64,000 nt of DNA from Bilabrum cf. latius (taxonomy: Eukaryota): the NCBI GenBank assembly GCA_965178125.1, contig OZ237737.1, forward strand, positions 310,001-374,000, given 5' to 3'. The notes under the pieces are model-generated. The model searched no databases. It was not told the origin of the DNA and saw only the letters and a list, made by a program, of their open reading frames with translations. A program made the translations under genes and the position numbers. Shown here piece after piece: positions 16-64,000 of this stretch. The number at the start of each line of letters is the position of its first letter. The stretch's first letter is position 1.

Positions 16-2229
16 TCAGATCTGCTCATGGTCAGAGTCCTCCTCGGGACCCTCATCGTGCGACTCGTCCACCTCCGCCTCCAATCCCGCGCTGTTCTCA
101 TCAGCAATCGCATCCTCCAAAACATCCTCCCTTTCAATGCCCTCCATCTCCTCCAGGCTCGAGACACCCCCGGCAGGATCTGCTCCCTCGACCTCCGAGC
201 CGTCGTCGGCAAGCCTCGCATTGCCGCTTGCGTCATGACCTCTGCCCTAGTCGCCTTCCTTGCCATCTGCTCCCCCCGCGCCCGCTTCGCCGTTCATGGA
301 GCTGCGCATCCCTTCCACCGCTGCCTGGAACTAGTCAAGCTGCCAGCTCGGCCCAACCTCAAAATCGTCGTCCATGATACTGAGCTGCTCCAGCTCACTC
401 ACGAGGTGCTCTTTCTCCACTGTATTCAACAAGAGTGCCGCGTCGATCTTGTCCGCTGCACGGACCAGCAACTCAGCTGCTGCCTCAGCAAAGTCTTCCT
501 CCAGTATGCCTTCCGTGATTCCGTCGCTGAGACAACTGATAGTCCCGAGCTGGAAGGCTTCCCTGTACGACTCCACCGGCATGGTCGAAAGGTAGTTGGC
601 GACAACGAATGTGGCCTCTTTGCGAACGCTCGGATCCTCCTCTTTCTCTCTGACGATTTCAATCGCGGCCTGCAGGGCACCCTCGTCCACCAGCTGGTGG
701 GCCTGCTCGGGGGTCCCGGCAGCAACATTGCTCAGCGCCCACATTGACTCACGTCGCAAGGATACCTGCGGGTAGCCCATGCATTTCATCAGCAGGTCGA
801 TGGCGCCGTGCTGCAGGGCGGCATTAGTAGGCTCAACGTTGCCTGACACCAGATCGGAAACGAATCTCTGCATCGCGGTGATCACCTATCGCGGCGGACC
901 CGCTCCCGAGCTATCACTGCCGCCACTGGAGGAACCCGATCGCCCGGACGAGGACCCGGCCTTGGATCCCGCTCGAGCAGAAGCGGGGTTCACCTCTCCG
1001 TACTGGTCGAAGAGGGCCTGCATGCAGCCCATCAGGGCCTGGTGCAGCCCAGCCTCGATCACAGCCTCTATCTGCTTCTCGTCATTGTCGTTTTGAACGA
1101 GGTACTTGCAGGCCCAAACGACATCTGAGAGCATCTCCGTGTCCAGTGGTCGTCTTCTGCACAGCCCAGCCAGGGTTGTGGCGATCGGCAGGACATGTTC
1201 AAGAGGACGGCTAGGTCTAGCCCTGCGTAATATGCTGAGTAGGGCACTAGCAGGGCACTATAATATGCATTGATTCCCGTACGACTTCGTTCGGAGCACA
1301 TTGAGTCTAGCTGATTTCTGTACAAGCATGGCTCGAAGCAACTGATGGCGCGGACGGGTGTACCGTAGTCAAATACAAAATGAAACCCACCTGCACATGT
1401 TGGACAGCGCCCATGATGCATTTCGCAGCACATTTGTGGAGGCATCTGGATTATTCAGCAAGGCCAGCAGTGGAGGCAGCGCGCCGTCTTCCACGAGGCG
1501 GTCATGCGCCTCGACCCCGTCGCCCGCGAGATTGCCCACCGCCCACGCGCACTGCTCCTGGACCTCAGCGTGCGGGTTGCGCATTCCGTCGATGAGAGAC
1601 GTGGCTGCACCCGACTCCATGATGGCTGCGGAGTTCTCCGAATCACCGCTGGCGATGTTGGTGAGCGCCCATGCCGCCTCGAACTGCTGCCTTGGGTTGG
1701 TATCGTCGCGCAGCAGCTCAACGAGCAGAGGGATAGCGCCCAGTCTGCACGTCTCTTTGACGGGCGGGCTGTCTACTGCGTGGCAGCTGAGGCATTCGAG
1801 CATGGGCGTGGACTGTCCTGGCCTCGTTCGCCGCCTTCGAGTATAAGGTAGAACTAGCAGCGCTAGCACACTCGCATCGCACGTAGCACCTTCTTACCTA
1901 CGCTCAGCAATCGCCGGATATCATGGACGGCTTGCAATAGAATTTGCGGGTCGCTGCATACTCGTAGTGTGGAAACCAACATTGGCAGCAAGTCAACCTG
2001 CTCGAACAAGGCACATGAAAGACGCACTGAGGGATAAGATATCAAGCAACTTCAGTCCCTTTCCGGCAATCAACTCGAGAGAGATCAAAGGTGTTGTAGA
2101 CGTGTCGTGCGTGAGACCAGCAAACCTGCGATGCAACCAGCTGTGCAAGCTCACAGAAAGCTCGCCCTCCTTCGGCGGCTCCAGGCCCTCAGGCAGTGGA
2201 AGCTCAGATACTGTATCCTAGGATGCCAT
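16..2229 (-). CDS. Importin alpha-like ARM-repeat protein, 4 exons, acidic C-terminal tail
   Basis: ARM motifs [59 protein letters not shown]. Predicted exons 2229-2155, 1997-1898, 1775-1391, 1222-16 with GT..CAG introns that keep frame. Four in-frame TAG (e.g. 886-888, 331-333). Ends TGA at 16-18. Confidence 0.85.
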
Positions 2230-2352
2230 ATACTGCTCTTTGGTTATACTTGAGGAAATTTTGCGTGGTTTTATCCGGAACGTTCGTCAGTGGCTGAAGA
2301 GGTGCTTGAGCGAGAGATCGCATTTCCGTCCCGATCTGTGGACCGTAGATTC

Positions 2353-4356
2353 ATGAATTTTATGGATAGGGTGCAATGTCGTGTGGATCATGCTGTTGGC
2401 GCTGCGGCCGTCGCTGCAGCGGCTGCTTCTGTGGCCTTTCTAGCCAAACCCCTTTACCAATTGCGGGGATTGTTCGCTGGGACGACTAGATTTGATCTGC
2501 CCGAATTGTGGAACCTGATTGCGGTCGTTACGCTCTTCGCATGGATAACGTGGCTCGTAGCATTGTCGTGGAGCCCCATGATTCACGACAGAACCCACGT
2601 GAAGCGAAGCCTACACGACAGAGACCAGGATGTCCATGCCAAACGTCGCGTTGGCAAGGGATTGCCCCCCGCATATCCAGACGGTTGGAGATGCGTGTGT
2701 TTATCCCACGAGCTGAAGCACGGGTGCCATCGAAGCGTCACCATTTGCGGGAAGAACGTTGTGGTGTATCGGCCGGAGGACGGTAATCTAGGATCCTCCG
2801 GGCCTGTGTGCTTGTCGGCGTACTGCTCGCATCTCGGTGCACATATCGGTGCGGGAGGAAAGGTCGTTGGCTGCTAGATGGAGTGCCCCTTCCACCAGTG
2901 GAGATTCGGGCCCGATGGGTCTGTGCAGTACACTCCCGCTCACGCAGAGGGCAGGGACAGGCTACCAGGAAAAGCAGCGCGGATCAAGTCGTACCCGTGC
3001 ATCGACAGGAATGGACTTGTGCTTGTCTGGTTCAGCTGCTTGCATGCTACGGACGAATCCATGCTCAAGGAGGCCATGCAGCTGGCCGACAAGATGCAGC
3101 AGAGCGCCCACCAGGCGAGCTCGCCACAGCCCGGCGCAGCCACTGCCAGGGCCAGCCTGCACCTCGAGTCCAAGGAGCGCGAGGATCAAGACAATGACGG
3201 TGCAAGGGCAGCAGGTGGTGATAGCTCATCCGGATCCCTTGCGGTGGTCAGGGAGGGGGCAGTGGTGGTGGCAGGGGAGGGAGCAGTGGTGGTGGCAGGG
3301 GAGGGGGCCGGGGCAGGCCAGCAGAAGCAGAGGCTTCGGAGCGCACGAGTCCTGACAATCGCCGAGTCCATTGCTGCCAGCAGGGAAGCCGCCCAAGGAA
3401 CAAGGTGGGGGGACCCTAGGGAACACCCGCTTCCCCCGTGGTTCGAAGTGCCCGTGCACCCCGCCATGGAGGCAGGTGATTGGGTCTTCCATGGGAGCAC
3501 CTCCCACATCATTGACGCGCATGCGTGCGAAATGCCGGAGAACGGCGCGGACGCCGCTCACCTTGGTTGCCTCCACAAGGACTTCGTGTTCCCTGCGGTG
3601 GGCTTGTTCCTCGAGCACGGGTGGGACGCCACGTGGAAGGGACAGCCCGCCAAGGTGTCCGCTGGCAAGTACCGCGGGCGATTGAACGAGCAAACGGCGG
3701 GATCCAGCACGGATGGAGGTAGGGGAGATCGCGGCGCCATCAGCAGAAGTGCTGGATCGGGCAGCGTGGACCGGGGGAGCCAAATGCAGTCGTCCATAAC
3801 TCGGGTGAGGCAGGAGTGGTCCAGCGACCTTCCCTCCCAGGGAACAAACCCAGCCCCGTGTGACGAGAGCGGCAAGCCAGGCGGGCCCACGGAGGGGCTA
3901 TTCAGCAGCAGCATCAGCATCGACGAGAGCATGCGATTGGCCCGGTGGCTGGGCGGCGCCCGGCTGCCTCTCGGCGGCGTCAAGGTGCACGTGCAGCAGT
4001 GCGGTCCCGCCGTCGTGTTCCTCAACATGGAGACGGACCTGGGTCCGCTCGTGGTGGTGGAGACCGTGCTGACCATCGCTCCGCTGAAGCAGCTGGTGCG
4101 GCACTCGCTCTTTGCCCCGCCAGCCATCCCCCGGCTCTTCGCCCGCTTCGTGCTGGATGCGACAGCCACGCAGTTCGAGCGCGACATGGAGGTGTGGGCC
4201 AACAAGAGGTATGAGCCCAAGCCGGTGTACACCAAATCGGACCCGTACATTCGCCAGTTTCGGTCATGGTACCGCCATTTCTTCCGGTACGGTTGCTCGA
4301 CCTTTGCCGAGGTGTGGCAGGAGGAGCAGAGCTAGGGGGTGTCGCTCGAGTGGTGA
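2353..4356 (+). CDS. nvd: Rieske-type cholesterol 7-desaturase (Neverland/DAF-36 family)
   Basis: N-terminal TM segment, LPPAYPDGW, Rieske motif CSHLGAH...GC[TAG]MECPFH, iron motif ENGADAAHLGCLH, QFERDMEVWANK. Reading through TAG 2875-2877 completes the Rieske motif. Reading through TAG 4333-4335 gives the family-typical C-terminus ...SLEW-TGA. Confidence 0.9.
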
Positions 4357-16700: not shown

Positions 16701-17207
16701 GTGGCTGGGCGGGCCAGGGCGCTGGCGGCGCAGCAGCAGAAGAAGCTAGGGGCTGGGGTGCGTGGTGACGGTGCATCTGCGGCTGCTGCTGCCAGGCGTG
16801 CGGGCGTTTCCGTGGATGCTCTCGGGCCCGCGGTTTCGTCCGAGCACCTGCGCGTGCTGCACCCCGTGTGGCGCGCCATGCATCGAGTGGCGGGCGCTCT
16901 CGCGGATTCGTTCGCTGCGTAGGAAGCTGCCAGGATCCACGACATGGAGTTTAGGCGAGCAGCGCAGCGACAGGACAAGCTCGCCGAGGCACTTGCTCGA
17001 GCGGCCGAAGAGGAGCGTCTCGCGGCGGAGGCAGCCGGACCCAAGTCCCCCTGGCCATCGCTCTCCAAGCTGCTTGATTTCAGGGACTACTCACGGCTTC
17101 TATTCGCGACGGATGCAACGCGGGCAAGGGCGAGGGCCCAGGCAAAGGCCGAGAAGAACGCTGCGACCGAGGAGCAAGGGAATTCCAGCGACTCGGGAAG
17201 GCAATGA
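13737..17207 (+). CDS. Highly divergent F1-ATP synthase alpha-subunit-like protein with degenerate Walker A (~1156 aa)
   Basis: Arg/Leu-rich presequence-like N-terminus. Motifs GTVISCLGDVIVVAGM, GRVIDPLGRPLDG, SGVKVIDALAPIGRGQ, YLAPLAG, GRHAVLIVD, GSVTGILLVE, GYAQRVPIRQLAEFE. One frame across about 10 TAG. Ends TGA. Confidence 0.75.
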
Positions 17208-19879: not shown

Positions 19880-21250
19880 ATGCAATAGTTTAGCCCAGAC
19901 TCCGGCAACACTATTGCTCCACAATAGCACAGCGAGAGAGCCTCAGCGGATGATGAAGTAGACCAAGCAAATGCACTGCTTGTTGACCTGATCGGAGCTG
20001 CTGGTCGCCCAGACGCCAGAGCTCGGTATAGCGCTGTGACCAAGACAGATCGTTCGACGCTCGAGACTACAATTGGCAGAAAGAGGAAGAGATCGGAACT
20101 GCCGCAATCTGCCGCATCAAGGTTAGAATGCTCAGTGTGTAGTAAGCTGTTCTCTAGTCCGGCCGGCGTTCAGGCTCACGTACGCACGGTGCATCTGGGC
20201 GAGCGCAAGCACGTCTGCGATGTGTGCGGTAAAGGCTTCTGTAGGTCAAGTGTCCTCAAGTCCCACGTGCAAAAACTTCATCTGAGTGAGCCAAAGTACG
20301 AATGCACTGGGTGCGGCGATCGCTTCAGAAAGAAGGGTGACCTCAACGTCCATATAATTACAGTGCACCCAGACAAGCGTGACCATGCTTGCACCGAATG
20401 CGGAAAGCGCTATCGCTTGGAAACACATCTGAAGAAACACGTAGCTACTGTGCATAGGGGTAAGCACAAGCAGGAGTGCACCGAGTGCGGCAAGCGTTTC
20501 GGGTAGGCAAGCTATCTCAGGACGCACATCAAGACAGTGCATCTGGGTGAGCGCAACTTCGAGTGCACCGAGTGCGGCAAGCGCTTCGGGCAGGCAAGCT
20601 ATCTCAAAAAGCACATGAAGATCGTACACTTGGGTGAGCGCAAGCACGAGTGCACCGAGTGCGGCAAGCGCTTCGGCGACGCATTCAATCTCAAGAGCCA
20701 CACACGCATAGTACACTTGGGTGAGCGCAAGCACGAGTGCACCGAGTGCGGCAAGCGCTTCGGGCAGGCAAGCGGTCTCAAGACACACATAAAGGTAGTG
20801 CATCTGGGCGAGCGCAAGCACGAGTGCACCGAGTGCGGCAAGCGCTTCGGGGGGGCAGGCACTCTCAGGGCGCACATAAAGGTAGTGCATCTGGGTGAGC
20901 GCAAGCACGAGTGCACCGAGTGCGGCAAGCGCTTCGGGTGGGCAGGCACTCTCAGGGCGCACATAAAGGTAGTGCATCTGGGTGAGCGCAAGCACGAGTG
21001 CACCGAGTGCGGCAAGCGCTTCGGGTGGGCAAGCGGTCTCAAGACGCACATCAAGACAGTGCATCTGGGTGAGCGCAAGCACGAGTGCACCGAGTGCGGC
21101 AAGCGCTTCGGGGGGGCGGGCACTCTCAGGACGCACATCAAGACAGTGCATTCGGGTGGGAGCAAGCACGAGTGCACTGAGTGCGGCAACCGCTATGCAC
21201 GGAAGCGTGATCTAGACTATCATGTACGCACAGCGCACAAAGGGAACTGA
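19880..21250 (+). CDS. Multi-C2H2 zinc-finger protein, 13 fingers (~456 aa)
   Basis: 13 CxxC...HxxxxH fingers with LGERKHEC linkers and an RKRKR NLS-like motif. In-frame ATG at 19880 is reached across two TAG. TAG 20504-20506 lies inside finger 5. Ends TGA. Confidence 0.9.
20450..21190 (+). repeat. 87-bp (29-codon) coding tandem repeat of zinc-finger units, about 8-9 copies
   Basis: Near-identical repeated core GTGCATCTGGGTGAGCGCAAGCACGAGTGCACCGAGTGCGGCAAGCGCTTCGGG with a variable helix-encoding segment. Confidence 0.95.
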
Positions 21251-21822: not shown

Positions 21823-24800
21823 TCAGCACCGTCCCGCATACACGTCCCTTGCGAGGCTCTCCAAGTGCACCTCGTCTGGGCCGTCGGCTAGTCGCAGCGC
21901 GCGTGCCCAGGCCCACATGTGAGCGATGGGCGTGTCCTGAGACAGCCCCATGCCGCCGTGGGCCTGCATGGCCTGGTCCATCACGCGGAGGGCTACCTCC
22001 GGCGCCACCACCTTGATCATACCAACGGCGCTCTTGGCTGCCTTGGGCCCGCCTTCATCGATGGCTCTCGCTGCCGCCAGGGTGAGGAGCCGGGCCTGGT
22101 CGATGTCGATCCTTGCCCTTGCCACCTAGTGCCGGATCGTGTCTCTCGAAGACAGCGGCTTCCCAAACGCCACCCTCTGCTCGGTCCTGTCGAGCATGAG
22201 CTCCAGCGACCTCTCCGACATGCCGAGCAAGCGCATGGCGTGGTGGATCCTGCCTGGTCCAAGCCGCCGCTGGGCGATGGAGAACCCCGCGCCGTGGTCT
22301 TCCAGCAGAGCCTCGCTGGCCTTGAGCTGCACGTTGTCAAGGAGCACCTCTGCATGCCCGTGGGGGGCGTCATCGAAGCCCATGACGGTCAGGGGACGGA
22401 GCACCTCCACCCCGGGGGCATCCATGGGCACGAGTACCATGGAATGGGAGAAATGCCTCGAGCGGCGAGCCAGCCTTGCTGCCAGTTCAGATCGCCCGTC
22501 CTTCTTCAGCCTATCTACCACTCGATCCACAGCCAGCACCGCGGCCCTGTCCTTCACTAGGCAGATCATCACCTCGCACCTTGGATCCATCGCGCCACTC
22601 GTCCACCACTTCCTTCCGTGCAGCGTAAGCCTCTCGTCGGCGGCGCCGGAGTCTCCCCTGAGAGGAGCGCCGGCGTCCTCAAGCCACGACCTGTCGATGG
22701 CCGCCTCTCCTCCATCCTCCGCGGATGCCGACTCAAGCCATGCCGCCAGGCTGCGGGGCAACCGCGCCAGCGGTGACTCGTCAGGTCCCATCACATCAAC
22801 TGTCGTCTGCATGTTCGTCGCGTCTGAAGATGCGACCTGCGGCTCGGTCATGCCGAAGCAGCTGCGGATCTTGCCATCTAGCAAGGGTGCCAGCCACCTG
22901 CTCTGCTGCTCCTCCGAGGCAGCGACGGCGAACACCTCCATGTTGCCCGTGTCCGGAGCATTGCAATTGAACACCTCGGGTGCCAGCAGGCTGCGGCCCA
23001 TCGCCTCAGCCATGGGGGCGTACTCTAGGACAGAGAACCCAGGGTTGGCCTCGCCCGCCAGTCCAGTGTTCAGGGCTGGCGGCAGAAATGCGTTGAACAG
23101 GCCAGCCTATTTCGCCTTGTTCTTCAGGGCCTCGATCGAGTCGTGGTGAGGATCCCACCGCTTGCCGCCCATGGAAGCCGAAGCGCCGCCGCCCGCGCCA
23201 CCGTCCGCAGCGAAATCCCCCCTGTTGAGGTAGTAGTCCCCCCCCAGCAGCTCCTTCTCCAAAGGCATGATCTCATCCTCCACCATGCGGCGCACATGGG
23301 AGAGCGCCTCCCGAGCTCGATCCGACATGTGCACGCCCACGAGTGGGTCGGCCAGCGGGCCAAGGCTGCCATCCAACCGGGCAGCGCACTTGCTGCCAGT
23401 GGTGGCCTTGGTACTTGCAGAGGTGGTGCCCGCCTTGTTGGTGGGTCCTGCTGACCCCGCCTTCGCTCTGCTGCCGCCTGCTGCACCACCACCTGCTGCA
23501 CCACTTGCAGCCACGTCAGATCCACCGGTGGGGTTCGGGCTTGGCGTTTCTTTTTGCCGCTGTTCGTGCAGGCGAGCCACCCCGACGCCCACCTGGGCGC
23601 ACACCGCAGCCAGCTTGCCCACGGCCCCGGCGTTGGCAGCGGCGGCGTTTCCCTGCAGGCTTCTCTTCTTCACGCCCTACAGAATGGCAGCTGCGCGGAA
23701 TAGGGCCAGCGCGACGTAATACTCCCAGTCTTTGGGTAGCGCCTGGTCGGGTGAGGTGACGCACACGCCGGTCTGGCACGCGTTGCGGCTGAGTCCGGCG
23801 CAATAGTCCGTCAGGAACTAGGGGAGGGTGGGGATGCCGCGGGCGGTGAGCTCCTCATCCAAAGTCTTGCCCTCCCTCGGCGTGACAAAGCCGGTGATGG
23901 GCGACCCGGGCAGCTCGGGGAGGTAGTATGGGAGGCAGGCGTGCGCGAGGTCTAGCATGGGGTGCCCGATCGTGGCGAGCTCCCAGTCGAGCACTGCGGC
24001 CACGTGCAGCCCGCGCGGGGACGATGGGTTCGACTGGCCGGTGCTTCCAGAGAACAAGATGTTGTCCAGCCGGAAATCGCCGTGGAAGAGCGTCTGCACG
24101 TCGCCGGCGTCCTCGGGCAGATGCTCCGGGAGCCACTCAATCAGGAAGTCCATGTCTTCCATGGTATCCGTCTCGGAGGCCCTGTACTGCTTGGTCCACG
24201 TTGAAACCTGCCTGCCGACGAACAGGTGCGGCTTGGAGCTCAGATCGCTGAGGCCTGCTGCTTCGACGTCCACAGCATGCAGCTTCGCGAGCGTTCCGGC
24301 GAAGGACCTGTAGGCCTGCGTTCTATCTGCAACCGTGTACTCTTCCGCTGCCATGCGAATGTCTTTGATAACTCTCCCATCCACGTAGTCGTACACGAAG
24401 AAATCGGTCCCAACCACGTCCTTGTTCAAGCAAAGCAGCCGCGCGGCTGGCACCTGCAGGATTCCCCGCAGCGCGTGCATTATCTTGTACTCGCGAGCCA
24501 CGTCGTGTGCACCACGAAGAAGTTTACCTGGGGGTTGCTTTCGAAGCACCAGCTTCGTGCCGCACGCAGTTTTCAAAAGGTAGGTTGGATTTGACTGGCC
24601 GTACGTGAACTGCTAGATCTCCAGGGCGGAAAAATCGTTGCCTTGCAGAGCTCGCTACTCGCTCAGGTATTTTGATAAGCCTTTTATGTCCAATTCATGC
24701 CCTTTGCGCACCGACGCGGTGCTGCACGCGCGCTTGTGAACTGTGCAGTGAATCGTAGCGGCAGCAGGGTGCGGGTGCGGGTACGGGATTGTACCAGCAG

Positions 24801-25587: not shown

Positions 25588-27834
25588 ATGGTGAGAAGAC
25601 TTGTGCTGCAGCTACCACCTGATTGTGATCGGCTGTTTGGAGCTACTTTTCTGTTTGGAGGGACGATTTAATCCACCGATGTAGTATACATGTGTTGCAA
25701 CATGATGGCGTGTAATTCTCCTGTTTGTAGTAGCCTGTACGAGTCTGTCCACCAACGGGTAGCTGGCGCGTGCGTACCAGGTAGCAGGTGGTAGTGGAAT
25801 CAACAGGTTCGTCTTTGTCGATACTGCATATGTGCATACTGCAATAAATAATAAATGCTTAATCATAGTCCCTCAGCTGTACTTTGCTGGCTTGGATTTT
25901 CCAACTCATCTCGATACCGCTCGCAGCGTCGAGCATCAAAAGGGAACAGGCGCCAGGCTTGTCATCGGTTCGTGCGAAGTCTCTTGGATCAGGATGTCTT
26001 TGCGGAGGACAGCAAAATGTCTCTATGCCAGGTTCGGTCTGCAGGTCTGGTGAACCAGCTCGCGGCCGCCGGAACCATTCCGTCCGCCGCTTCTGCGGCC
26101 TTGTACGTCAAAAAAGTGAACAAGATTGCGCGAGATGGCTCCCTGTTCAACGACAGTGCCACGGATACGGCGGGCTGGTACAGGTAGAACGGCGTGCAGA
26201 TGACCAAAAACACGATCACCAAGACGCTCGGTGAGCTGGCAAGCACCGGGCAGCTCCTGCTCGCCCTCCCCGCGGACCTCAGGGCCGGGCTGCTCAAAGT
26301 CGCCCAGTCCGCAGAGGCGAGGAAGGCTCTGCTGGCTAGGATTGCCCGAGACACCACGGTGCCCGGCGACCCTGATGCCGCCGCCTCCAAGCGCGAGTTC
26401 ATTGCCCTCGCACGCACTTGGGGCGTGCCAGATGAAGAGTAGATCTAGGGCGATGAGGAGGAGGACGACGCGGGCCAGGCTGAGCCTGTCGATGAGGACG
26501 AGGAGGAGGAGGAGGATGAGGACGAGGATAAGGACTAGGACGACGAGGAGGATGAGGATGAGGACGAGGATGAGTACGAAGACCAGGGTCTATCCCCGTT
26601 CGCTGCTGCTGCCAATGAGGACAAGGACGAGGGCGAAGAAGACTACCTGCGCCAGGCTGCTCCAGTCGACGAGGACGAGGACGATGACGAAGATGAGGAC
26701 GAGGAGGGTGCGATGTGGTCTCCCGCAAGAGGCACTCCTATGGACTAGAGTAGCAATCCCACGGATGCAACTGCTGGTGGGTTTGTGTAGATAGGGGCGG
26801 ATCGACTGATCGTGCTGCCTTCCCTCGGTCCTGCTCCCATGGCTGCCCGTAACCAGGTCCATGTGGCCACTGGTATTCCCGGGTAGTTTCGCACGTCCCC
26901 ATCCGCTTCGGTTGGCTCGTTCAGGTCTGGGTCGGACTCAGACGAGTCAGACTCAGACTCAGACGAGTCGGACTATTCGGCGGAGGCATGGCAAGCAGTA
27001 AGGCGCGCCATGCAGCTGCAGTAGCAGCAGTAGCAGCAGGCGGCGAGAGGTATCACGCGTACTCCGCTGGCGACTGTGGCCTCTGTAGGCGGCGCCCGGG
27101 TATCCTCCTCGCCGTCCTCGTCCTCATCCTCAGCTTCAGCATTCGCCCGCCGTGCACAATGGTCTGCTCCAGTCCCTGGTGCCCCCGTGGTCGGCGCTCA
27201 CGGTGCGCCTGTAGGGGGCATCAACGGACCGGAGGGAGCAGAGACTGCTGAGCATGAAATGCGAGAAAGTCGAGCTCTGACGCCTAGTCGCGAGCTGACC
27301 CAGTCGTCAATGTCTGGGTCATCACTGGCCGGCATGCCCCTGCCCTCTCCGATGGGCAGGCAGGTCTCGGTGACACCGAGTGCCGCCATGGAGAGCGACG
27401 AGGATTGGGCAGGCGAGAGCGAGTACAGCAATGCGACTGGGATTGCCGACCTCGTGTCAGCTTCGGCTCAGACTGGCCATGTCGAGGACCCCGAGGCCCC
27501 AAGCGATCGATCTACTCAGCCTCGGGCCCCTGCGGCCTCTGGTGCTGGTGCCGACACCGTCGCTCCTGCTGCCTCCCATGGTTCTCCTAGGATCGGACAG
27601 AAGCGCGGCAGGGACAGCGAGTCAGGCGCGAGCACGGCGGTCTCGACACCTGCCGCCCAGGTGCACGGTGAGGAGCAGGGTGGCAGGATCACCACCGGCT
27701 TGGAGGAGGAACAAGGTGGGGGCGCCGAGCCCGCTGGGGAGGAGGTCCGATCGGCGTTTGCGGAGAGCGGCAGGGCCAGCGTGAGGCGCCGCATCTAGAT
27801 CGGGCTCAGGATTGGTGAGCCACGCCGTGGTTAA
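25588..27834 (+). CDS. Orphan acidic low-complexity protein, copy 1 (long form)
   Basis: Predicted ATG-only first coding exon 25588-25590, intron 25591-25926 (GTGAG..CGCAG), then an open frame with about 10 TAG to TAA 27832-27834. D/E tract, poly-Q run, QKRGR motif. Paralogous to 29990-31282. Confidence 0.65.
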
Positions 27835-29989: not shown

Positions 29990-31282
29990 ATGGTGAGCAA
30001 ACATGTGACAGGGGCCTAGACTAGCTGTTTGGAGCTACTCTTGTGGGTCAAGGGACAATGCAGTGCGCATGTAAAATACAAGATGCCAATTGCTTTGCTT
30101 GCGGTAGGCTCGGTGATTAAGAAATGTTGAATTGGAGTTCTTTCCATCGCCATGCGGATAGCTGGATTTCCTTCAATACCGTATGCCAGTGGCTTCAGTA
30201 GGCTTGCTTGTTTCGATACTGCATGCGTGTATTGGTATTGTATTGTTCGTGAGCTGTACTTTGCTAGCTTGATTGTCCAACTTGTCTGGCACTGCTCGCA
30301 GCACCGTTCAACGCCGAAGACCAAACTCGAGGCTTCATGCCAGTTCGTGCGAAGTCTTTTGGCTCGCAACAGGGACTTACAGGCTGAAGAAGGACGCGTG
30401 TCTGTATGCCAGGTTCGGTCTGCATGCCTGGTGGACCAGCTTGCGGCCGCCGGAACCATTGCGCCCGCCGTTGCAGCGGCCTTGTACGTAAGGAAGGTGA
30501 ACAGGATTGCGCGAGATGGCTCCCTGTTCAACGACATTGCCAGGCATGAAGCGATGTATCATGGTCAGCAGCATGGCGTGCAGATGACCAAAACCACGGT
30601 CACCAAGACGCTCGGTGAGCTGGCAAGCACCGGGCAGCTCCTGCTCGCCCTCCCCGCGGACCTCAGGGCCGGGCTGCTCAAAGTCGCCCAGTCCGCAGAG
30701 GCGAGGGAGGCTCTGCTGGCTAGGATTGCCCGAGACACCACGGTGCCCGGCGACCCTGATGCCGCCGCCGCTACTCGCGAGTTCGCTGCCCTCGCGCGAA
30801 CTTGGGGCGTGCCAGATGAAGGGGAGGGCGATGCTGAGGACGATGACGAGGCCGAGGCCGATCACGATGATGAGGACGAGGGCGTGGATGAAGCCGAGGC
30901 CGGTGCCGAGGATGAGGATAAGGACGAGGACGAGGACGAGGACGAGGCCGATGACGATGATGAAGACGAGGCCCCCGAAGCCCCCAGCGATCGATCTACT
31001 CAACCTCGGGCCCCTGCGGCCTCTGGTGCTGGTGCTGACACCGTCGCTCCTGCTGCCTCCCATGGTTCTCCTAGGATCGGACAGAAGCGCGGCAGGGACA
31101 GCGAGTCAGGCGCGAGCACGGCGGTCTCGACACCTGCCCCCCCGGTGCACGGTGAGGAGCAGGATGGCAGGATCACCACCGGCGCGGTGGAGGAACAAGG
31201 TGGGGGCGCCGAGCCCGCTGGGGAGGAGATCCGATCGGCGTTTGCGGAGAGCGGCAGGACCAGCGTGAGGCGCCGCATCTAA
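29990..31282 (+). CDS. Orphan acidic low-complexity protein, copy 2 (short form)
   Basis: ATG 29990-29992, intron 29993-30301 (GTGAG..CGCAG), exon 30302-31282 ending TAA. Shares the CQVRSA...QMTKxTxTKTLGELASTGQLLL domain and the C-terminus with copy 1 but lacks about 0.9 kb of the middle. Confidence 0.65.
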
Positions 31283-47914: not shown

Positions 47915-50221
47915 TCACTCCAGCTTACCTCCAACGGTGGCGCTCGCTGAGCCTGGTGCCGCTTCATGATTGCCTGGCTCTACACCAGCGCATACCGCCG
48001 CATTAGCCCCCGCACTACCGACACTATCTTCCTCCATACGCACAGTCACCTGCGGCCTGCCGAAGTCCACCCCGGAGTGTGTCTCTCTGGCCAGTGGGTC
48101 GTAGCCCTTGGGGGGTGGTCCGTGCCTGCGGATGAATGGGCTGGCCTCGCCGCACAGATGCAGGTAGGCACACCCGCGGCACTTCCACTCCTGCTGCTCG
48201 CTGGGCCCTCGGGGCTGTGTCTCGCCAGCTAGCAGCCTAGCGATCCTCCTGCCCATCGCGAGCACCTTGCCGGGCACTGACCTCCATTCATGTGTCCCAA
48301 TGGCCTTGCCGGTCCCCTGATGCTCGTACTGCAGTTCACAGGTCCTGCTCAGGGGAGGAAGGCGCCCATATGCATGGAATGCGGCGCGAAGCAGCAGGCG
48401 CAGAGTCCAGACCATTTCGGCAGTGCTAACTGCATCAGGACCACTATCGACAGCACTTGCGCTGCTGCTGCTGCTGCTGCTGCTGCTGACCACTGCAGAT
48501 GAATCAGAATCGTTTGATTCGCCGGCTCCACGTGATACTGGTACGGGCTCCTCGTGATCGTCAGAGTCGTCAGTATCGCCGAGCAAGTCGACCACATCAC
48601 GCCCGGTGGTACTTGGCAGTACCGGTGGTGGCTATACTGCGCCGTGGGCGGCCAACTGGTGATGAAAGTCTGTCGCAGGCCCAGTAGTGCCCACCACGGA
48701 CCGTTCTACCTGCTCGCTAAACGGTGCATCCAAGTCTGCCCCTTGCTGCTCCAGCAGCGACTCGATTGCGGCCAGGAACTCCTCCATGCTGTCGTAGGCA
48801 CTCGACAATCCTATACACGGGTTCCGCAGGCGCATTCCGTGTTTGCTGCTACCATCATGTGAGGCAGCTATGCTACTGGATGATGCATCTATCGATGCCT
48901 TTGCTTGTGCATCGCTGCCAGCACCAGACCGTGAATGTCCTTGAGAGCTAGAGGTGCAGACCTGCACCAAGCTGGGCTGTTTCAAAGACCGCCCTGGTGC
49001 TGGCGCTTCCCTCCCCCCGGCATGCGGTTTACCTATTGGTGTAGCGCGATCCACCCGTCGTTTTGCTTTTGGTGATTCACCGTCGCAAGGTTCCTCGCAT
49101 GAAGCAACCTCTCCTGGTCGCCAAGTCAACCCTTCCAAAGCCTATTGCCCTGCTGCTTCGTGATGGGTCTGCTTCTATTCGGGGATTGACGATTCGCTTG
49201 ATGAGCCGTCCCTAGATCGCTTGCTGCCTGGCAATGCGATCGAAGCTGTTCTTGCTTTGCTATAAGGGGCACTTGCATGGACGGAGCTTGCTCGCAGCTG
49301 CTGCTACTAGCTGGAGCGAAAGCCAGCACGGCGATGCTCGGTTGCGCGGCCTGCTGCGAGCTGCCGCGCGCCGTCTAGAAGCATACGGTACGTGTCTACC
49401 TACAGCATGCTGGTACGCTTTTGCGCATCTGAAGGCATCGATGCTCTCTGCCTGGTCTTGTTGTCCCGCACCAGGCACTCTTGCGGTCCCCCGTAGCTGA
49501 GCTCGCTCGACGACCGAGCAGCCAGCGGACCGGACGCGTGTCCGGCAGGGTGTCGTCGCAGAAGCAATTCGTCTGCGATCCCAAACAAAAGCAGTTTGGT
49601 GTGATGCACCCGGCTCTTGATGGTCTTCGGAGAATCTGCTGGAGCACTTGCTGAAGGCCGCGACAATCCGGTTGCACCAGCAGCCATCGAAGCCGTCTCC
49701 GATGATGCGCTGGCGCTTCTTCTCGGCACAGGGTCCTCCTGGCTGTTTGATAACGGCAAATCCAGCACTCCAAACACAGGAATCTCTCTGGTCCTTCCTT
49801 GGCTGAGCTCTCCAATGCAGAATATGGTGTTGACGAGATGAAGCGCCCAGCGGTCGGCTTCTGTATGGGTCTCAATAGGAAGAACTTCGTGTACCTGTTT
49901 TTCAAGTTCGTCGTGTCTAATACTCCCAGCGACCATAGCCGCAGACCGTGGCGGTTTGCCTATTTGAATGTTGTAGATAGTCTCTCTTTCACACCATGCA
50001 AAGGACGCAAAGCGAGTGATGGAAAGCTGCGGTCTAGCAAACTGTACATGCACTTTGCTGCCATTTAGGCCGGAGTATCGTCTCCACATCTTTTTATGCC
50101 AGTCTATTGCCACGACTAGCGATCCAACTGCCGCATCGTCAATGTCCTCAATATCGTCAATACTGGCCGATTCTTGCGGAGTGCAATCGCGCGACAGGAT
50201 TCCAATTGATGCCTGGAGCAT
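47915..50221 (-). CDS. EXO5: Exonuclease V (EXO5/Dem1), Fe-S RecB-type nuclease (~768 aa)
   Basis: LSITRFASFAWCE, MVAGSIRHDELE, TREIPVFG, FGIADEL, DNKTR, ML[TAG]VDTY (QxxxY), and C-terminal EWKCRGCAYLHLC. Six TAG. Ends TGA. Confidence 0.88.
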
Positions 50222-56700: not shown

Positions 56701-59637
56701 GCGGGGCTCCGAGGGGAGCAGCTGCCTGGGTTCAGCAGGCGCGGCACGAGGTCATCAGGGGACCGCGGATCTGCCGCGCTGGTGTCTCGGGGACTGGGCA
56801 CGGCGGCCGGTAGATTCAGGAGTGGGACCGCTCTGGCGGTGCAGGGCCCCGACGATGAGCAGCACGGGATTGGTGGGGTGGATGGGGTGCAGCAGCAGGA
56901 GAGCATCCGGAGGCTGACGGTGGGAGGCGCCGAGACTCGCGCAGAGGCGCACAGAGCTGCGACTGCTCTGAGCGGAGTGATGGTGCCCGTGCCCGTGCGG
57001 CTACGGTTGCCCGCAGGTTTTGGTCGGAGCCCGATCAGGCAGGTGGCGTGCGGTGCCGCCCACACGGCCATCGTCACGGAGAGCGGGCACCTGTTCGTCT
57101 GCGGGTCGGGCGCGGGCGGCAGGCTTGGACTAGGAGCGAAAGTCCTCCCTGCAGTTGTTCCCCACCCAGTGCTGGTGGAGGCTCTGGCGCGGGCTGGAGT
57201 TCGGATCGTAGAGGCGAGCTGCGGCATGGAGAGCACGCTGGTGCGGTCAGAGCTCGTGTACAATGACATCGTGGGAGGCGGGGCGGTCAAGGACGCGGGG
57301 GTTAATGACGAGGCCAGCGAGCCTGCAGACCCATTTGATTCGCCCAGGACCGCCGCCCCTGGCAACGAATCGGCTCGATCCGTGCGTCCCGTGCACACCG
57401 ACCCGGAGCTGGCCGGTGCCCAGAAGCTCGACCCGAGAGGACTCTTCGGGGAAGTAGAGGGCGGCGCCGTGTACGCGACAGGAGTTCGATGGGCACTAGG
57501 GGAACACGCTTCCCAGGAGTTCAAGCGAGTCGCCGGACTGCCCCCGGCTCGACAAGTGTGCGCCGGTGCTTCGCACCAGGCTGTGGTGACAGCGGCAGGG
57601 GAGCTGTGGACGTGGGGCGAGAACGACAAGGGAGCAGCGGGCCACCCACGGGGCAAGAAGTTTCTGCCTACGCCGAAACGTGTGCGGGCGCTGCACAAGG
57701 CCCCTAGAAACCTCGCTCTGGGGCAGCCATGTCGGCAGTCCAGCACCTACGCCCAGAGGCACGCCTTCCTCGCCGTCGATGGCACCATCAAGGGCGAAAG
57801 CGTGAGACACTGCGCGTGGACGCAGCGCGAGGACGAGCCTTGGTTGGAGGTTGATCTGGGAAGGGACTGCTACGTGTCGGCCGTGGAAGTGTACGTGCAC
57901 CATGGCACCCGGGCCAGCTGGATCGGCGGCGGTGGCATGGATGCTACGGGAGAGCTTGGATCCTCCTCCTCACGCTCACTGCAAGAGCCAGGCAGGCAGA
58001 CGGCGGCCGGCATGCGGACCATGTCCGCCGGTGGGTTGGGTCAGGACGGCGCGGAGAGCGTCGTCTCGCTCGTGTCGGACGACGGCATTGAGGCCGGGCG
58101 CCCCAGCTCGCGCGCCGGCACGGTCACCACTCGCTAGCTGCGGGAGGCGATGGCATCAAGGGGCTACGTGTCGGCCGGTATCGCGACAACTGCAGGGACA
58201 TCCAGGTCCTAGGGAACACACGGACCCCTGGATGAGACGGACGCTCCCAGGCCCGTTGGTGGCCCCGCCGCTCGCACCGACGCGACCTCGCGCCGCTTCC
58301 TGCCGCTGCACGTGCTCCTGGCGAGGCAGGATCGGCCGTTTCCTGCGGTGATTGGAAAAGGGACGCTTCGCGTTTCCAAGGAAGTTGCCGTCGCCTCCTG
58401 CACTCACACCAGCGGGAGGAGGCTGCTCAGCTGGCAGCCTCCCCCCATGACGAGGGCCCGGTTCATGCGAGTCGTGCTCGACAAGAACGAGCACCTCGCG
58501 GTGGCACAGGTCAGGGTGCTGGGCACGTCCTCGAGGCAGCCGCCCAGGATGCCGGTGCGTCACGTCAGCTGCGGACGGGCAGCAATGTCTGTCGTCACTG
58601 CGGCCCGCACCGACAATGAGACGCTGCTGACTCACTACCGACGCGCGATCGCAGCGGACCCGCGGGCTGCGAAGCTGCTGCGTCGTATACCTGCGTACGC
58701 TCCGTTTTTTGACGTGTACGGCGACAACTACCTCCCGATCGATGCCAGGGAACAAGACGAGGAGAGCAGAAGGCCGCCCTCGCCGAGAGAGGCGCGCCGG
58801 CGGCAGCAGCGCGCCATGCGTGCGGCCCAGCGTGACAGACGGAAGCGATACATGAAGGAGATCGAGAAGAACGCGAGGATCGTGGGCAAGAGGGGCCAGG
58901 GCCGCAGGGAGCGCCGGTTGCTGCAGAGGCAGGCCGTGTCCAAGCAGATGCGGGCCTTGGACGAGGAGATGCAAAAGGAGAAAGAAGCGGGGCTGTACGA
59001 CGTGGACGATACGCTCGGCGATTCCGGGTGGAGGGGAGAGGCGCTAAGGTCAGCCAAGGAGCTCCTCGCGAGACAGGACTGCGCCATGGACCCTGCGGCC
59101 AACAACTGTCCCCTGTGCGAGCCCAAGAAGCGGTGCGCGTCCTGCGAGTTTCACCTCAAGTGGGTGCAGCCGTTCGCGCTGCGATCCTTCCACAGGCAGC
59201 TGAGGCGCAGGGCGCAGCATGACAAGGAGGACAACCAGATGCTGGTCGATGCCGCGGAGCTGAAGGCGAAGCAGGCAGCTGAGGCCGCGGCACGGGCTGC
59301 TGCAGGCAGAACGTCAGTAGAGGAACGAGACCATGAGGCCACAGACGGGGCAGAGGCAGCAAAGGGCGGGGCCGGAGAGGGGGAAGAAGCCTCTGGTGAC
59401 GGGGCTGGTGACCCGGTGGTCGAGGAGGCCCTGAAGGGAAGGGTGGAGCTGCCTCCGTACAGGCGGTGGCAGCTGCAAGACGTCCTTCGCGCAGTGCTGG
59501 TGGAGGAAGCTGACGACGAGGGCGTGTCTCAGCTGGAGACGCTGCTACAGCGGGCCGCTGTGACCGGCCGGGCAATGGCCCCTGAGGGATTGCAGGAACA
59601 CGAGAAGTCTCGGGGCGGGAAGCGGCAGCGCGATTAA
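50761..59637 (+). CDS. Giant EF-hand + RCC1-repeat + fucolectin/F5-8-like domain protein (~2958 aa)
   Basis: Four EF-hand loops (DTDGDGVLDMGE, DLDDDGFLSQDE, DSS[TAG]RGALDEVE, DADKSGLLEYEE). RCC1 repeats (VACGAAHTAIVTESGHLFVCGSGAGGRLGLG). NLALGQPCRQSST...AVDG...PWLEVDLG. About 13 TAG in one frame. Ends TAA. The start could be an upstream in-frame ATG such as 50692. Confidence 0.8.
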
Positions 59638-59759: not shown

Positions 59760-60410
59760 TTAGCTTCCGACGCCCTCAGCCTTGCCCTCGTCACCGGCTG
59801 CCTTCCCCGCTGCTGCCTCGGCCTTCGAAGATACAGCACCTGAAGCTAAAACACTGGTTTTTTTTGGCTTCAAATCCTTTCTGTAGAACCAAAACTCAAC
59901 GCCTGACCGAGACAAGCCTTCAGGAGGTATTGAGTGCGGACCAACCCCAGTCTTCTCGAATCCATGCTTGGAGTAAAACGGAGGCAAATCAGTCCGAAAG
60001 TTCACAATCTCCATAGTGAGAGCACTACGACCACGTGATAATACCTCCTATTCAAGCCTAGCGAGCAGGCTGGAGCCTAGCCCCCTGCCTTGGAGCTTTG
60101 GGTCCACAGCGAACGGTCCGAATCGCATGGCTGATGCATCCGCCTTGTCAGGGTAAAACACGACACAGCCCACCAGTTTACGGTGAATATCCAACTCAAC
60201 AATCATTTCGCCCTTCAATATGTGCTACCTAATCGCATCATGCTGGGCATCGTTGAAAAGTCTGTCTCTTGTCTTGAATGCAACACCGGTTGAGCCAGTT
60301 TCGATACCATAAGCCAAGTTAATCAGCTTGCAGGCAGAATCGTAGTCATCTTCAGCAGCTAGTCGGAAAATGAGCTCTGATTCTGTGACTTTCTCGCTTG
60401 TAGCGGCCAT
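59760..60410 (-). CDS. GNAT-family N-acetyltransferase (~216 aa)
   Basis: LINLAY, FGPFAVDPKLQGRGLGSSLL (acetyl-CoA motif A), VNFRTDLPPFYSKHGF. TAG at 60225 and 60048. Ends TAA. Confidence 0.88.
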
Positions 60411-60547: not shown

Positions 60548-63487
60548 ATGCAGAGCGAAGACGATGCAGTTTCTAAAGGTAGATTAATATCTCAATGGGT
60601 GCAGAAGATGAAGGCAGGGGAAATAACGCAAGCAGAGCTGATTGAGATCATGCGAAAGCAAGTGGCCAGCAAGCCCAGCCAGTCCGGGCAAAGCGCTCCG
60701 CAACAGCAATCCCAGCCGCCGAGCGAATCACACGGACATAGTGGTATTGCGGTAGATTTGCAGGCTAGGCAGCCAATCCCTTCGCCATCCGGTCAGCAAG
60801 GTGGCCTGCTTGACCCGGACGAGGATCAAGCACCACAGCGCACCTCGGCCCCCGCCGCCCGGCTCACGCCAGCAGAGGCGGAAAGAAAAACTATGATTTA
60901 GGTTAGATAGTCAGACGCAGCTCGTTTCACTGAGTATTAATTGCACAATTTACGCTGTACGTGTTGCGCAACGGTTTGTGCGTACCGCAACAGACACCCT
61001 TGTATCACATAATATAGAACGTTTGCATCGCAGCGACTCGTCGAATAGCAGCGAAGGGCACGAGCCGAGGCAGATAGGCACAGAGAATAGCTTGCTAGAG
61101 CAGATGCGTCCCGCCCGGCCCAGCCACCTGCTGTGCCGCAGTACGAGCAGCCACGTTCATTCGCCCCCTCGAGAAGCGAGCAGCTAGGTAGGTCCTCAGA
61201 TGCTTCAAGGAGATCAAATGTGCAAGCTCCTATGATTCCGGGCGGACGAGTCGCCTTGGAATCCGCAGGTTCGTCGGGCGAGCGAGCAGGTGCGCCGACC
61301 GGCGAGCGAGCATCCGAGCAAGTGCCCCGGCAGAGCATCGTCACCATGGACCCCGTCTCGAGAGCTGCAGCGGCAGCACGCGCGAGAGACGCGGCAATCG
61401 CAGCTGCCTAGAGAAAGGAAGTGTCCCCAGCGAGGGGGGGCTACAGCCAGGGCCAGTACGGCCAGGGCCAGGCGTACGCAACTCCGGGGCACCATAGCCA
61501 ACAGCAGTACGGAGGCAGCGGCATCAGCGGTAACGCAGCCGGGCATGATCCCTCCGGTGGCGATCTTCCGTCGACGGGGCAGGGACAGGGGCAGGCTAGC
61601 CGGCGGTCCGCCAGCGCACCACGAGGCAGCCGCTCCGCCCTGCGGTCTCGTGCCAGGGACGAGGCCGAGCAGGCGGCCAGGGAACAGCGCGAGCGGGAGC
61701 TGGAGGAGTGCACCTTCCGGCCGCAGACCCGGCGCCTGCCCTCCCAGTACGGCAGCAGCCGTCGGGCCTTGGAGAGCGTGCCCTTTGCCGAGAGGATGGA
61801 GCAGTGGAAGAGGCACAAGGTGCAAGAGTCGGAGAGGAGGAAGAAGGAAGAGGAGGACAGGGAGGTCTCCAAGTGCACCTTCCAGCCGAGGATTTCCGCC
61901 GTGTCGCGCAAGACGGTCGCGCGGCAGAGGCAGATGGGCGGGGCTGTGCCCGCGCACGAGAGGCTCTACAGGAGCGTGACCCCGGCCAGGGCGCTCAAGA
62001 TGAAGACGCCATCCAGCGCGAGGGGCATGGTCGGGGCCCAGACCTCTTTTTCCTCCAGGCACGGTGGTCAAACCGGCCCCTATGGCGGCGTTTCCTCTGC
62101 ATCGGGTGCGGGTCTGCAGCAGCAGCAACAGGGCTTGGAGCACACGGCCTCGCGCGCACGCCCCGACTACAAGACCATGGAGGAGCGTGAGCTGGAGCAG
62201 TGCACCTTCCAACCGCAGACCAACCCGAAGCTAAGCAGGCGATCGGCGCACCCTGTTCGGTCCAGGTTCCGCCAAGCCGCCAAGGCGAGGTCGCTGGGCG
62301 TGCAGCTGGGCAAGCCCAAGTACACCGGCGCGGAGGAATGCACCTTCGCGCCCCGGGTGAACCCCGTGTCCAAGGCGATGGCGAATGCGCGCAAGTACGT
62401 GGAGAAGCCGGTGTTCGAGCGGATGAGCGAGCGCGCGAGGGCGGGCGCAGGGAACAGTAACGGGCGGTCGCAGTCCGCGCCCAGGGCGCGGCGCGGCCCC
62501 GCTGCCGAGGCCCGCGCCATGGGGGGTGCGGGAGGGGGTGGCGCGTCGACGCTGGGCGGGTACGACGAAGGTGCGGGTGGCGCGTCAGGTCAGCTGGACG
62601 ACTCGCGGTTCGGCTCCGTTGGCGGGTCAACGATGGGGGCCGGCGGGAGCATGCGGCGGGGGCGTCGCAGCGAGGGCGGAGACCAGAGCCGCGTGATGGA
62701 CCTGAGCAGCTTCCGCCGGGCCATGGACGGGGGCGGGGTCGGCGACCTGGAGGGCAAAGAGGAGGACGGGGGAAGGGAAGGCAAAGCCAGCCCGCGCACT
62801 GCCGCCGAGCGCAAGAAGAGGTTTAAGCAGTTCTTGCAGCGGCAGAACCACACATTGGCGAGGAAGGCGAAAAGCGTGCAGCTGCTCAAGGAGCAGACCG
62901 CCGCGCCGCACCAGCCCAGGCTGTGCCGACGGTCCGTCGAGATGGTGTCCGCCGAAACCCACGGAACGTTCCTCGAGAGGATGGCCAAGAAGGCCGTCCT
63001 CAGGGAACACGCCAACCAGCAGGAGCGGGCCAGGGTGGCCAAATCGGCGGACTGCACCTTCGAGCCAAAGATCAACCGGCACTCCAAGCAGATGCCCCGA
63101 CGCTCCTACGCAGAGATGTCCCGGGGAGACGCCCTCAAGCGGGAGACGGCGCAGCGCCTGATGAAACTCAAGTTGGAGCAGGACGAAATCGGGCAGTTCG
63201 AGTTCGCCCCCAAGATCAACGACAAGAGCAGGCAGGCCCAAGGCAAGCTGCGCGTACTGGACGACCCGGAGACGTACGTGGAGAGGGTCCACAGGGAACA
63301 AGCCATACAGGCGGAGAGGGCCAGGCAGCAGGCTCTGCAGGCCGAGTCCACCGAGTATGACGAGTGCACGTTCAAACCGGAAGTGCACGACGCCCCGGAG
63401 TACATCAAGCGCATCGCCAAGACAATGGCTCTCACGCGGGCCGCGAGGCCGCCCAGCCCCTCCGAGCAGAACCCGCGCTGGAGATGA
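60548..63487 (+). CDS. CTFxP-repeat protein of unknown function, 2 exons
   Basis: Exon 60548-60901, intron 60902-61033 (GTTAG..CGCAG), exon 61034-63487. Six CTFxP motifs plus FEFAP. Four TAG. Ends TGA. Confidence 0.75.
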
Positions 63488-63756
63488 GACGATAGGAAGT
63501 ACGGTTACCTAGATCGGCGAGATCTACGCGCGGGAGTCACCAGTGGTTGCAATGGCCGTCAGAGGGGTTTCAGTACCTGGCGGGTGTGCGCCTCGGTTAG
63601 CATGTGTTCTGGAGCGCTGTGTTGCTTTGTGAGTGCTTGCATTTATGTTTTTTTTCAATCTCGCGATGTCTGGCAATGTATTTTGGTGCACTACATGAGA
63701 ATCATCTTGCAGACCGGTTGGTTTGCCTGGCTGGCTGGAGAGAGGGGGCTGGGTCA

Positions 63757-64000
63757 TCATCGGCCGAACCCCCCTCCGGCCGCCCCGGCGCCTCCTCCCA
63801 GCGCCCTCCCCCCGATCGCACTCACCCGCTTCTTGCCCGCACCAGCCCCCGCCCCGATGCCTTTCCCCTTGCCCCCCTTCATGGAGCCCCCCATGAGCGC
63901 GTCGAGCGGGTCACCACCCCTCTTCTTCCTCAGCTCGTCGATGGCGCTCCGCTTGGGCGTCCAGGACTTGAGTGAGCGAATAATCTCGGAGAAATCCGGA
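63757..64000 (-). CDS. 3' end of a gene running in from beyond the window, possibly a TKL-type protein kinase
   Basis: PDFSEIIRSL resembles the kinase subdomain XI RPxFxEI, followed by a Gly-rich tail and tandem TGA TGA. Only about 80 codons are visible. Confidence 0.45.
   Translation of the reverse strand, partial: PDFSEIIRSLKSWTPKRSAIDELRKKRGGDPLDALMGGSMKGGKGKGIGAGAGAGKKRVSAIGGRALGGGAGAAGGGFGR

Follow-up and report, generated by a model that had tools for sequence, protein, structure and literature searches.

Eukaryotes that have turned a stop codon into a glutamine codon usually reassign UAA and UAG together (PMC5304391, PMC11687900), as in many ciliates, hexamitid diplomonads, Ulvophyceae, Streblomastix, and Amoeboaphelidium (PMC11687900). 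Reassignment of UAG alone is known from the fornicate Iotanema spirale, whose nuclear code has UAG as Gln and UAA and UGA as stops (Panek et al. 2017, PMC5304391), and from the ciliates Hartmannula sinica, Trochilia petrani, and Protocruzia tuzeti, where UAG alone encodes Gln (McGowan et al. 2024, PMC11687900). With UAA kept as a stop, UAG encodes Leu in the rhizarian exLh and in TARA phyllopharyngean metagenome-assembled genomes (MAGs), and Ser in Scotinosphaera (PMC11687900). The “genetic code 15” phages, e.g., crAss-like phages, read TAG as Gln via a CUA suppressor tRNA (PMC9523058). Here, we analyzed a 64-kb stretch of DNA (the window; positions 310,001 to 374,000 of contig OZ237737.1) with a G+C content (GC) of 61%, and we report how TAG, TAA, and TGA are used in its genes. 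Our reading, to which we assign a probability of about 0.85, is that this is nuclear DNA of a protist with a GC-rich, gene-dense, and intron-poor genome, probably a Cafeteria-related stramenopile, whose cytoplasmic ribosomes decode UAG as glutamine, with UGA as the main terminator and UAA as a minor one. We take this codon meaning to be that of “genetic code 15” in the numbering of the NCBI tables, and the ciliate nuclear code with both UAA and UAG (UAR) as Gln to be table 6.

Under the standard code, the longest open reading frame (ORF) in the window has 719 codons. When TAG was read through, ORFs of 3054, 2634, 1530, 1248, 1108, and 1069 codons appeared, while reading through TAA instead brought almost no gain in length. 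The ORFs read in this way carry complete eukaryotic domain sets, namely those of ECM29, ACAD10/11, Exo5, Rieske/KshA_C, and RCC1 (Pfam). In 19 gene models (17,645 codons; some start codons are provisional), we counted 99 TAG in frame and neither TAA nor TGA, as compared to 118 and 112 TAG, 40 and 45 TAA, and 252 and 329 TGA in the two off frames of the same models. The 99 TAGs are distributed over 17 of the 19 models, without accompanying TAA, TGA, or frameshifts. Next to 578 CAG and 125 CAA, TAG makes up about 12% of the Gln codons (99/802), a share that speaks for a long-established, completed change and against sporadic read-through. A sequence-only reading of this DNA, made before our analysis, had claimed about 100 TAG in frame, ordinary CAA use, and no internal in-frame TAA; these counts bear it out, as do the 7,571 homology-bounded codons described below, where in-frame TAA is likewise absent.

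The genes and codons that bear on the meaning of TAG are:

47915-50221, minus strand: exonuclease V (Exo5) gene (Pfam)
49400..49402, minus strand: TAG codon 274 of the exonuclease V gene, on a Gln column
21823-24969, minus strand: gene for an ACAD10/11-type acyl-CoA dehydrogenase with a kinase-like domain (Pfam), with 6 in-frame TAG
23677..23679, minus strand: TAG codon 431 of this ACAD10/11-like gene, on a Gln column
19877-21250, plus strand: C2H2 zinc-finger gene
20504..20506, plus strand: TAG in a C2H2 zinc-finger repeat of this gene, motif GxASYL
25927-27834, plus strand: last exon of the gene p1, with 10 TAGs
30302-31282, plus strand: last exon of its paralog p2, with 0 TAGs
Placed by Pfam: Rieske/KshA_C oxygenase gene

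For the alignments with homologs, the queries were translated with TAG as X. The Exo5 set consisted of the 150 best representatives in a phmmer alignment, in which 68 stretches span codon 274. All 68 have Q in this column, and Y four residues downstream is equally constant (68/68), a pattern that resembles what we take to be the Q-x-x-x-Y motif of RecB-type nucleases. Human EXO5 (7lw7) also has Q at this column. At codon 431 of the ACAD gene, Q is present in 113 of 120 aligned homologs as well as in human ACAD11 (8v3v). The other five ACAD TAG columns are variable (R 80/120; E 70 plus Q 22; S 42 plus A 41; D 95; one mixed), with Q in 2 to 22 homologs per column. When log-odds were summed over the seven columns of Exo5 and ACAD, Q reached +10.1 bits and led the next residue by 19 bits (E -8.9, A -9.5). 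TAGs are also embedded in Gln runs, such as QLQxQQxQQ, SSxxQQ, and QQxDG. At the zinc-finger TAG, CAG (Q) is found in two of the seven other repeats, one of which, GQASYL, is the closest in sequence, and the remaining five have D, G, or W. For the paralogs, p2 carries Q opposite the first TAG of p1. In the comparison of the Rieske protein with PDB entries, TAG196 aligns with S or E of KshA, and the proteins cannot be compared at the C-terminus. Within the window, the alignments and codon counts support a code in which UAG would be read as glutamine and UAA and UGA terminate.

Gene ends were placed from ORFs, Pfam matches, and spliced contigs. Nineteen of the 23 ends (16..63759) are TGA and four are TAA, and none requires TAG. 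The TAA ends are exactly those named by the sequence-only reading (27832, 31280, 59635, and 59760), and its view of TAA as solely a terminator and of TGA as the dominant stop holds within the 64-kb window. The features concerned are:

27832..27834, plus strand: TAA stop of p1; read-through adds 43 codons with a GC at third codon positions (GC3) of 0.60, then TGA
31280..31282, plus strand: TAA stop of p2; TGA 7 codons further
50491-59637, plus strand: EF-hand and RCC1 giant, 3,048 codons (Pfam)
59635..59637, plus strand: TAA stop of the EF-hand/RCC1 gene; read-through adds 27 codons, GC3 0.48
59760-60410, minus strand: GNAT acetyltransferase gene (Pfam GNAT families)
59760..59762, minus strand: TAA stop of the GNAT gene, convergent with the EF-hand/RCC1 gene, 122 nt between them
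Plus strand: Vps45 (Sec1 family) gene, three exons

Each TAA stop is followed by a further in-frame stop within 7 to 44 codons, which is TGA in three cases and TAA after the GNAT gene. When the TAAs that flank real genes are read through, 0-59 extra codons of lower GC3 precede the next TAA or TGA; the one exception, upstream of 61013, is a piece of 183 codons. Two of the TAA ends, 27832 and 31280, come from the paralogs p1 and p2, but these two stops are not at the same codon of the alignment. The homology matches of ACAD10/11 and Vps45 (Pfam, PDB) extend close to their TGA ends. TAG is present in the last 12 codons of 2 of the 23 genes, where about 1.5 are expected from the in-frame rate, and within the last 30 codons of 3, where about 3.6 are expected; in the Rieske gene, one TAG precedes the TGA end by 7 codons. 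The gene at the right edge of the window ends in a tandem TGA TGA (63754-63759).

Since TAA was used to delimit the ORFs, the zero count of in-frame TAA is in part a consequence of the procedure. Therefore, the codons were recounted in 12 spans flanked on both sides by Pfam or PDB matches. These homology-bounded spans, with 7,571 codons in all, contain 32 TAG, 0 TAA, and 0 TGA, while 7.0 TAA would be expected if the ratio of TAA to TAG equaled that of CAA to CAG (48:221; Poisson P(0) ~1e-3). By the CAA:CAG reasoning, 21 TAA are expected in the gene models, and since CAA, GAA, and AAA occur at 0.22 to 0.31 of their G-ending partners, the expected number ranges from 21 to 31; 0 were found.

Splicing and transcript-derived sequence were followed by comparing the contigs of sequencing runs with the window over 12001-32000. 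X1 is a DNA run, while X5, X7, and X8 are taken as RNA by a program's guess. The relevant features are:

13083-13176, 13257-13348, 13437-13526, minus strand: intervals skipped in splice-bearing contigs
17586-17687, 17739-17870, 25590-25925, 29992-30300, plus strand: intervals skipped in splice-bearing contigs
12890-13579, minus strand: small four-exon gene, TGA end at 12890-12892, with three CT..AC joints in the X5, X7, and X8 contigs but not in X1
13421-13423, 13251-13253, 13245-13247, minus strand: three in-frame TAGs of the four-exon gene in its spliced translation
60902..61033, plus strand: putative 132-nt intron with a GT start and a TCGCAG end, holding the TAAs at 60938 and 61010

Among the differences listed, the X5, X7, and X8 contigs skip seven short intervals of 90-336 nt, none of which is skipped by X1. 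All seven start with GTGAG or GTAAG and end with CGCAG. The introns seen cluster near 5' ends (the small four-exon gene, Vps45, p1, and p2). A splice-bearing contig over 21766-25589 has 0 letter differences from the window, the six ACAD TAGs included, and the TAG-bearing exons of the four-exon gene show no letter differences among those listed. The same letters are present over TAG-bearing exons in independent contigs of three further runs from two other studies. The TAGs are thus neither spliced out nor edited, because they are unchanged in the transcript-derived contigs. As separate observations, the shared CGCAG end amounts to an unusually strict 3' splice-site consensus, and the four-exon gene, which we take to be prefoldin-4-like by a name that comes from no family search, ends (12882-12892) in TGA followed by TTGATTGA, so that both remaining frames meet a TGA within 8 nt.

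Related sequences were compared at Exo5, Vps45, and the following gene:

13512-17207, plus strand: ATP-synt_ab-like gene
17199..17207, plus strand: end of the ATP-synt_ab-like gene, AGG CAA TGA; its counterpart in the metagenome contig L001 is AGG TAG TGA

The protein P0241 is 87% identical to the window over Exo5 residues 1-304, has Q at TAG 274, and ends near the double TAG of the window gene (Exo5 codons 305-306). A second protein, P0242, is 79% identical and ends, as a standard-code prediction, at window Exo5 residue 666. The window Exo5 extends beyond 666 to a conserved Cys-rich C-terminus that is also present in human EXO5; because the window gene continues to this Cys motif, the species of P0242 must read through a standard stop. 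L001, a JGI contig, shows 83% identity over Vps45 and has a GC of 55%, as compared to 61% in the window. The ATP-synt_ab-like gene of L001 has TAG before its final TGA, and since the window has CAA TGA there, this TAG stands at a Gln position rather than at the stop. The UAG = Gln code seems, from these comparisons, to be common to at least two species. In L001 1-2985, Vps45 is coded in three frame segments, like the three-exon Vps45 of the window, and has a TGA end. The last residues of another Vps45 relative, P0121, are divergent from the window Vps45.

Some observations weigh against UAG = Gln with UAA as a pure terminator. The sample is limited to 64 kb with 23 genes, the zero count of TAA is mostly circular, the ORFs ending at TAA by construction, and the P value of the homology-bounded spans is only ~1e-3 and depends on the assumed TAA:TAG ratio. 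Two TAAs, at 60938 and 61010, separate a coding-like piece of 118 codons from the 824-codon ORF that begins at 61013 in the same frame. The upstream in-frame piece, 60389-60937, comprises 183 codons and includes an ATG at 60548; its codon score is weakly positive. A 23-codon piece separates the two TAAs. We read 60902-61033 as a probable intron containing both TAAs; its GC is 0.45, and its in-frame codon score, at -0.33 per codon, is the lowest, but its 5' site is GTTAGA as compared to GTGAG or GTAAG in 7/7 joints seen. Alternatively, the piece upstream of 60938 could be a separate small ORF with a TAA end. Neither the putative intron nor the separate ORF would need TAA as a sense codon. If UAA and UAG were both Gln, as in the code of ciliates and hexamitids, with TAA too rare at high GC to be seen and the four TAA stops read through, the two TAAs in frame between coding-like pieces would be accounted for, and a stop 7 to 44 codons past every TAA end would make read-through nearly harmless. 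However, such a code calls for 21 to 31 TAA in the models and 7 in the homology-bounded spans, where 0 were found, and the pieces that follow TAA have lower GC3 and low codon scores. The sequence past the TAA of p2 is also frame-shifted with respect to p1: a 1-nt indel lies directly behind 31280 and puts the shared downstream sequence in different frames, and because of this one-base shift it cannot encode a common peptide. We consider a joint reassignment very improbable.

The contrary points that concern TAG itself involve p1 and a copy of the ECM29 gene:

27796..27798, plus strand: TAG of p1 opposite the TAA stop of p2 in a DNA alignment of the 3' ends; 11 more codons to the p1 stop
Convergent with p2: ECM29 proteasome adaptor gene (Pfam)
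28017-29681, minus strand: truncated ECM29 copy, a fragment of the full ECM29 gene

The alignment of the p1 TAG at 27796 with the p2 TAA stop at 31280 is also compatible with occasional termination at TAG, and context-dependent stop/sense codes have been described for Condylostoma and Blastocrithidia. A UAG that is Gln inside genes and a terminator near some 3' ends would agree with this TAG, just 11 codons from the end of p1, with the TAG 7 codons before the TGA of the Rieske gene, and with the TAG TGA end of the L001 gene. In contrast, TAG shows no excess near gene ends (2/23 with ~1.5 expected, 3/23 with ~3.6 expected), and the window has CAA TGA opposite the TAG TGA of L001; the difference between p1 and p2 can equally well be put down to a harmless lengthening or shortening of one of two recent duplicates, and we regard context dependence as improbable. 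Leu, Glu, Ser, Tyr, Lys, and Trp are known or proposed meanings of UAG in other systems. Another amino acid of this kind, or ambiguous decoding, gains from the four of six ACAD TAG columns that are mostly non-Gln in homologs (R, S/A, D, mixed) and from the ECM29 copy, which pairs TAG with TGG and not with CAG. The copy differs from the full gene by 11 amino-acid changes, a 3-base deletion across two codons, 5 silent changes, and the one TAG/TGG, and because it evolves like a pseudogene, this pair is uninformative on decoding. Moreover, the two strongly conserved columns are Gln (68/68 and 113/120), Q stands 19 bits above the next residue, the close relative P0241 has Q, and TAGs are found in poly-Gln runs, so that a different residue is harder still to credit. 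For TAGs that are not translated at all, whether as assembly errors, pseudogenes, or sites of UAG->CAG RNA editing, we found no supporting evidence. The spread of 99 TAGs over 17/19 models without TAA, TGA, or frameshifts, the same letters in contigs of three further runs from two other studies, and the same pattern in a different species leave this a practically negligible chance.

A code with UAG as Gln and UAA as a stop might be implemented as follows. UAG would be decoded by a tRNA-Gln with the anticodon CUA, which pairs with UAG and cannot wobble onto UAA, and which could derive from a copy of a tRNA-Gln(CUG) gene by one substitution. The release factor eRF1 would have lost or weakened its recognition of G at the third stop position while keeping UAA and UGA, and would either cease to recognize UAG or be outcompeted there. 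In the 64-kb window, 0 tRNA genes were predicted by ARAGORN and 0 Rfam matches of any family were found at the gathering threshold, and an eRF1 gene is absent among its 23 genes. The same pair, a CUA-only tRNA-Gln from the CUG isoacceptor and a UAG-sparing eRF1, was inferred earlier for Iotanema, whose eRF1 was noted to have a T32G change in its GTS motif (PMC5304391).

The codon table and the inferred mechanism are the same in Iotanema and in the window organism. However, Iotanema is an anaerobic metamonad that is known from a transcriptome and has UAA as its primary terminator (PMC5304391), whereas the window organism is an aerobe, judging by its ACAD, mitochondrial L17, and Exo5 genes, has a GC-rich genome, groups with Cafeteria, and uses UGA for 19 of 23 ends. 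The UAG-only cases of ciliates likewise rest on in-frame UAG at conserved Gln, and the cognate tRNA is unfound there (PMC11687900). Their macronuclear genomes have 27-54% GC, and UAA has been argued to be fixed as the preferred stop (PMC11687900); in the window, unlike in these ciliates, UAA is a minority stop. Codes with UAR as Gln share the conversion of a stop into Gln and the retention of UGA as a terminator, but UAA is also sense there, while the window has 0 in-frame TAA as compared to 7 to 31 expected. In exLh, the TARA MAGs, and Scotinosphaera, UAG is decoupled from UAA too, but as Leu or Ser, which score poorly at the TAG columns of the window. Code 15 phages have the same codon meaning; they are viruses of bacteria with bacterial release factors, whereas GT-AG introns and eukaryote-specific genes mark the window as eukaryotic nuclear DNA.

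The sequence-only reading had emphasized the decoupling of UAA from UAG, against a background in which the two usually change together. Its background agrees with the published accounts (PMC5304391, PMC11687900), and the decoupling is supported within the window; as a novelty it does not stand, its kind being already published (PMC11687900) for Iotanema, Protocruzia, Hartmannula, and Trochilia. In the literature searched, which omits most subscription journals, no report of a UAG = Gln code in a stramenopile or bicosoecid was found; PMC12480563 was rejected as a stramenopile precedent, since it concerns a plastid UGA = Trp change. The new elements may be the lineage together with the GC-rich, TGA-dominated setting. 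We tentatively propose, at slightly less than even odds, an independent and unreported origin of a UAG-only Gln code in a Cafeteria-related stramenopile clade of at least two species, GC-rich and with UGA as the main terminator.

If true, such an origin would fit poorly with UAA escaping reassignment through fixation as the preferred stop, and also with the capture of UAG through its rarity in an AT-rich genome, so that the ambiguous-intermediate route would be favored. With TAA at only 4 of 23 stops, the idea that UAA is protected by its dominance among stops cannot explain everything. Every additional, independent reassignment of UAG alone demonstrates that eukaryotic termination can distinguish UAG from UAA. 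As far as the two papers report, the tRNA-Gln(CUA) of eukaryotes with UAG-only Gln codes is so far unfound, transcriptomes or incomplete assemblies being the only material (PMC5304391, PMC11687900). For the organism studied here, a contiguous assembly is available; with contigs of at least 64 kb, it should make this tRNA easy to look for and could yield the first pair of tRNA-Gln(CUA) and eRF1 from such a eukaryote. Gene callers that use the standard code would fragment nearly every long gene of this organism, and the standard-code proteins of its relative, P0241 and P0242, represent such fragments.

Eukaryotic nuclear genes lie on the long ORFs of the window, as seen from Pfam matches, ORFs, and spliced contigs. 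In addition to those listed above, they include:

39376-42799: genes for a V-ATPase proteolipid, TMEM14, and mitochondrial ribosomal protein L17, small, with introns
Placed by Pfam: importin-alpha-like Arm protein gene

In both protein searches with matches, Cafeteria roenbergensis was the best named match, at 46-47% identity. In a FastTree of Vps45, the query and the ENA relative group with Cafeteria with an SH-like support of 99; the tree has 40 rows, made up of the query, P0121-P0149, and ten named matches chosen from P0150-P0240, with other matches excluded. Judged by these matches and this tree, the organism is probably a stramenopile related to Cafeteria. The placement is probable rather than settled, because it comes from a single gene without bootstrap and both sequences are from GC-rich genomes. 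The runs X1-X8, which carry four coded organism labels and come from four studies, contain 41-97% of the sampled words of 22000-31999. Their spread across labels would be consistent with an organism carried along in other cultures or hosts.

Six further ORFs were rejected as genes, since they match no Pfam family and have low GC3: 1417-2037, 39906-40940, 41153-41869, 60389-60940, and 63361-63975 on the plus strand, and 62627-63760 on the minus strand. Most of them overlap real genes in other frames or strands. The three small genes at 39376-42799 lie within 3.4 kb and all have TGA ends; this region has many TAAs, which lie outside the exons that could be placed.

The genes p1 and p2 encode acidic paralogs that have in common a well-conserved block of roughly 190 residues at the N-terminus and a conserved C-terminal end. 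Neither matches a Pfam family, and a search of 5.8 billion proteins gave no match, which makes them an orphan family. A recent segmental duplication links 27480-29681 with 30960-33162 and takes in the p1/p2 3' end, the spacer between the genes, and the final 1.66 kb of the ECM29 gene that converges on it; over the duplicated segment, the DNA run X1 has approximately double depth. The ATP-synt_ab-like protein of 13512-17207 has about 1,200 residues, and its sole domain is the ATP-synt_ab nucleotide-binding domain at residues 387-547. The rest is long Gly/Ala/Ser-rich sequence, an odd architecture for a relative of the F1/V1 alpha/beta subunits. The product of the EF-hand/RCC1 gene at 50491-59637, which carries 13 in-frame TAG, has EF-hands at its N-terminus, RCC1-like repeats, and a weak match to F5/8 type C.

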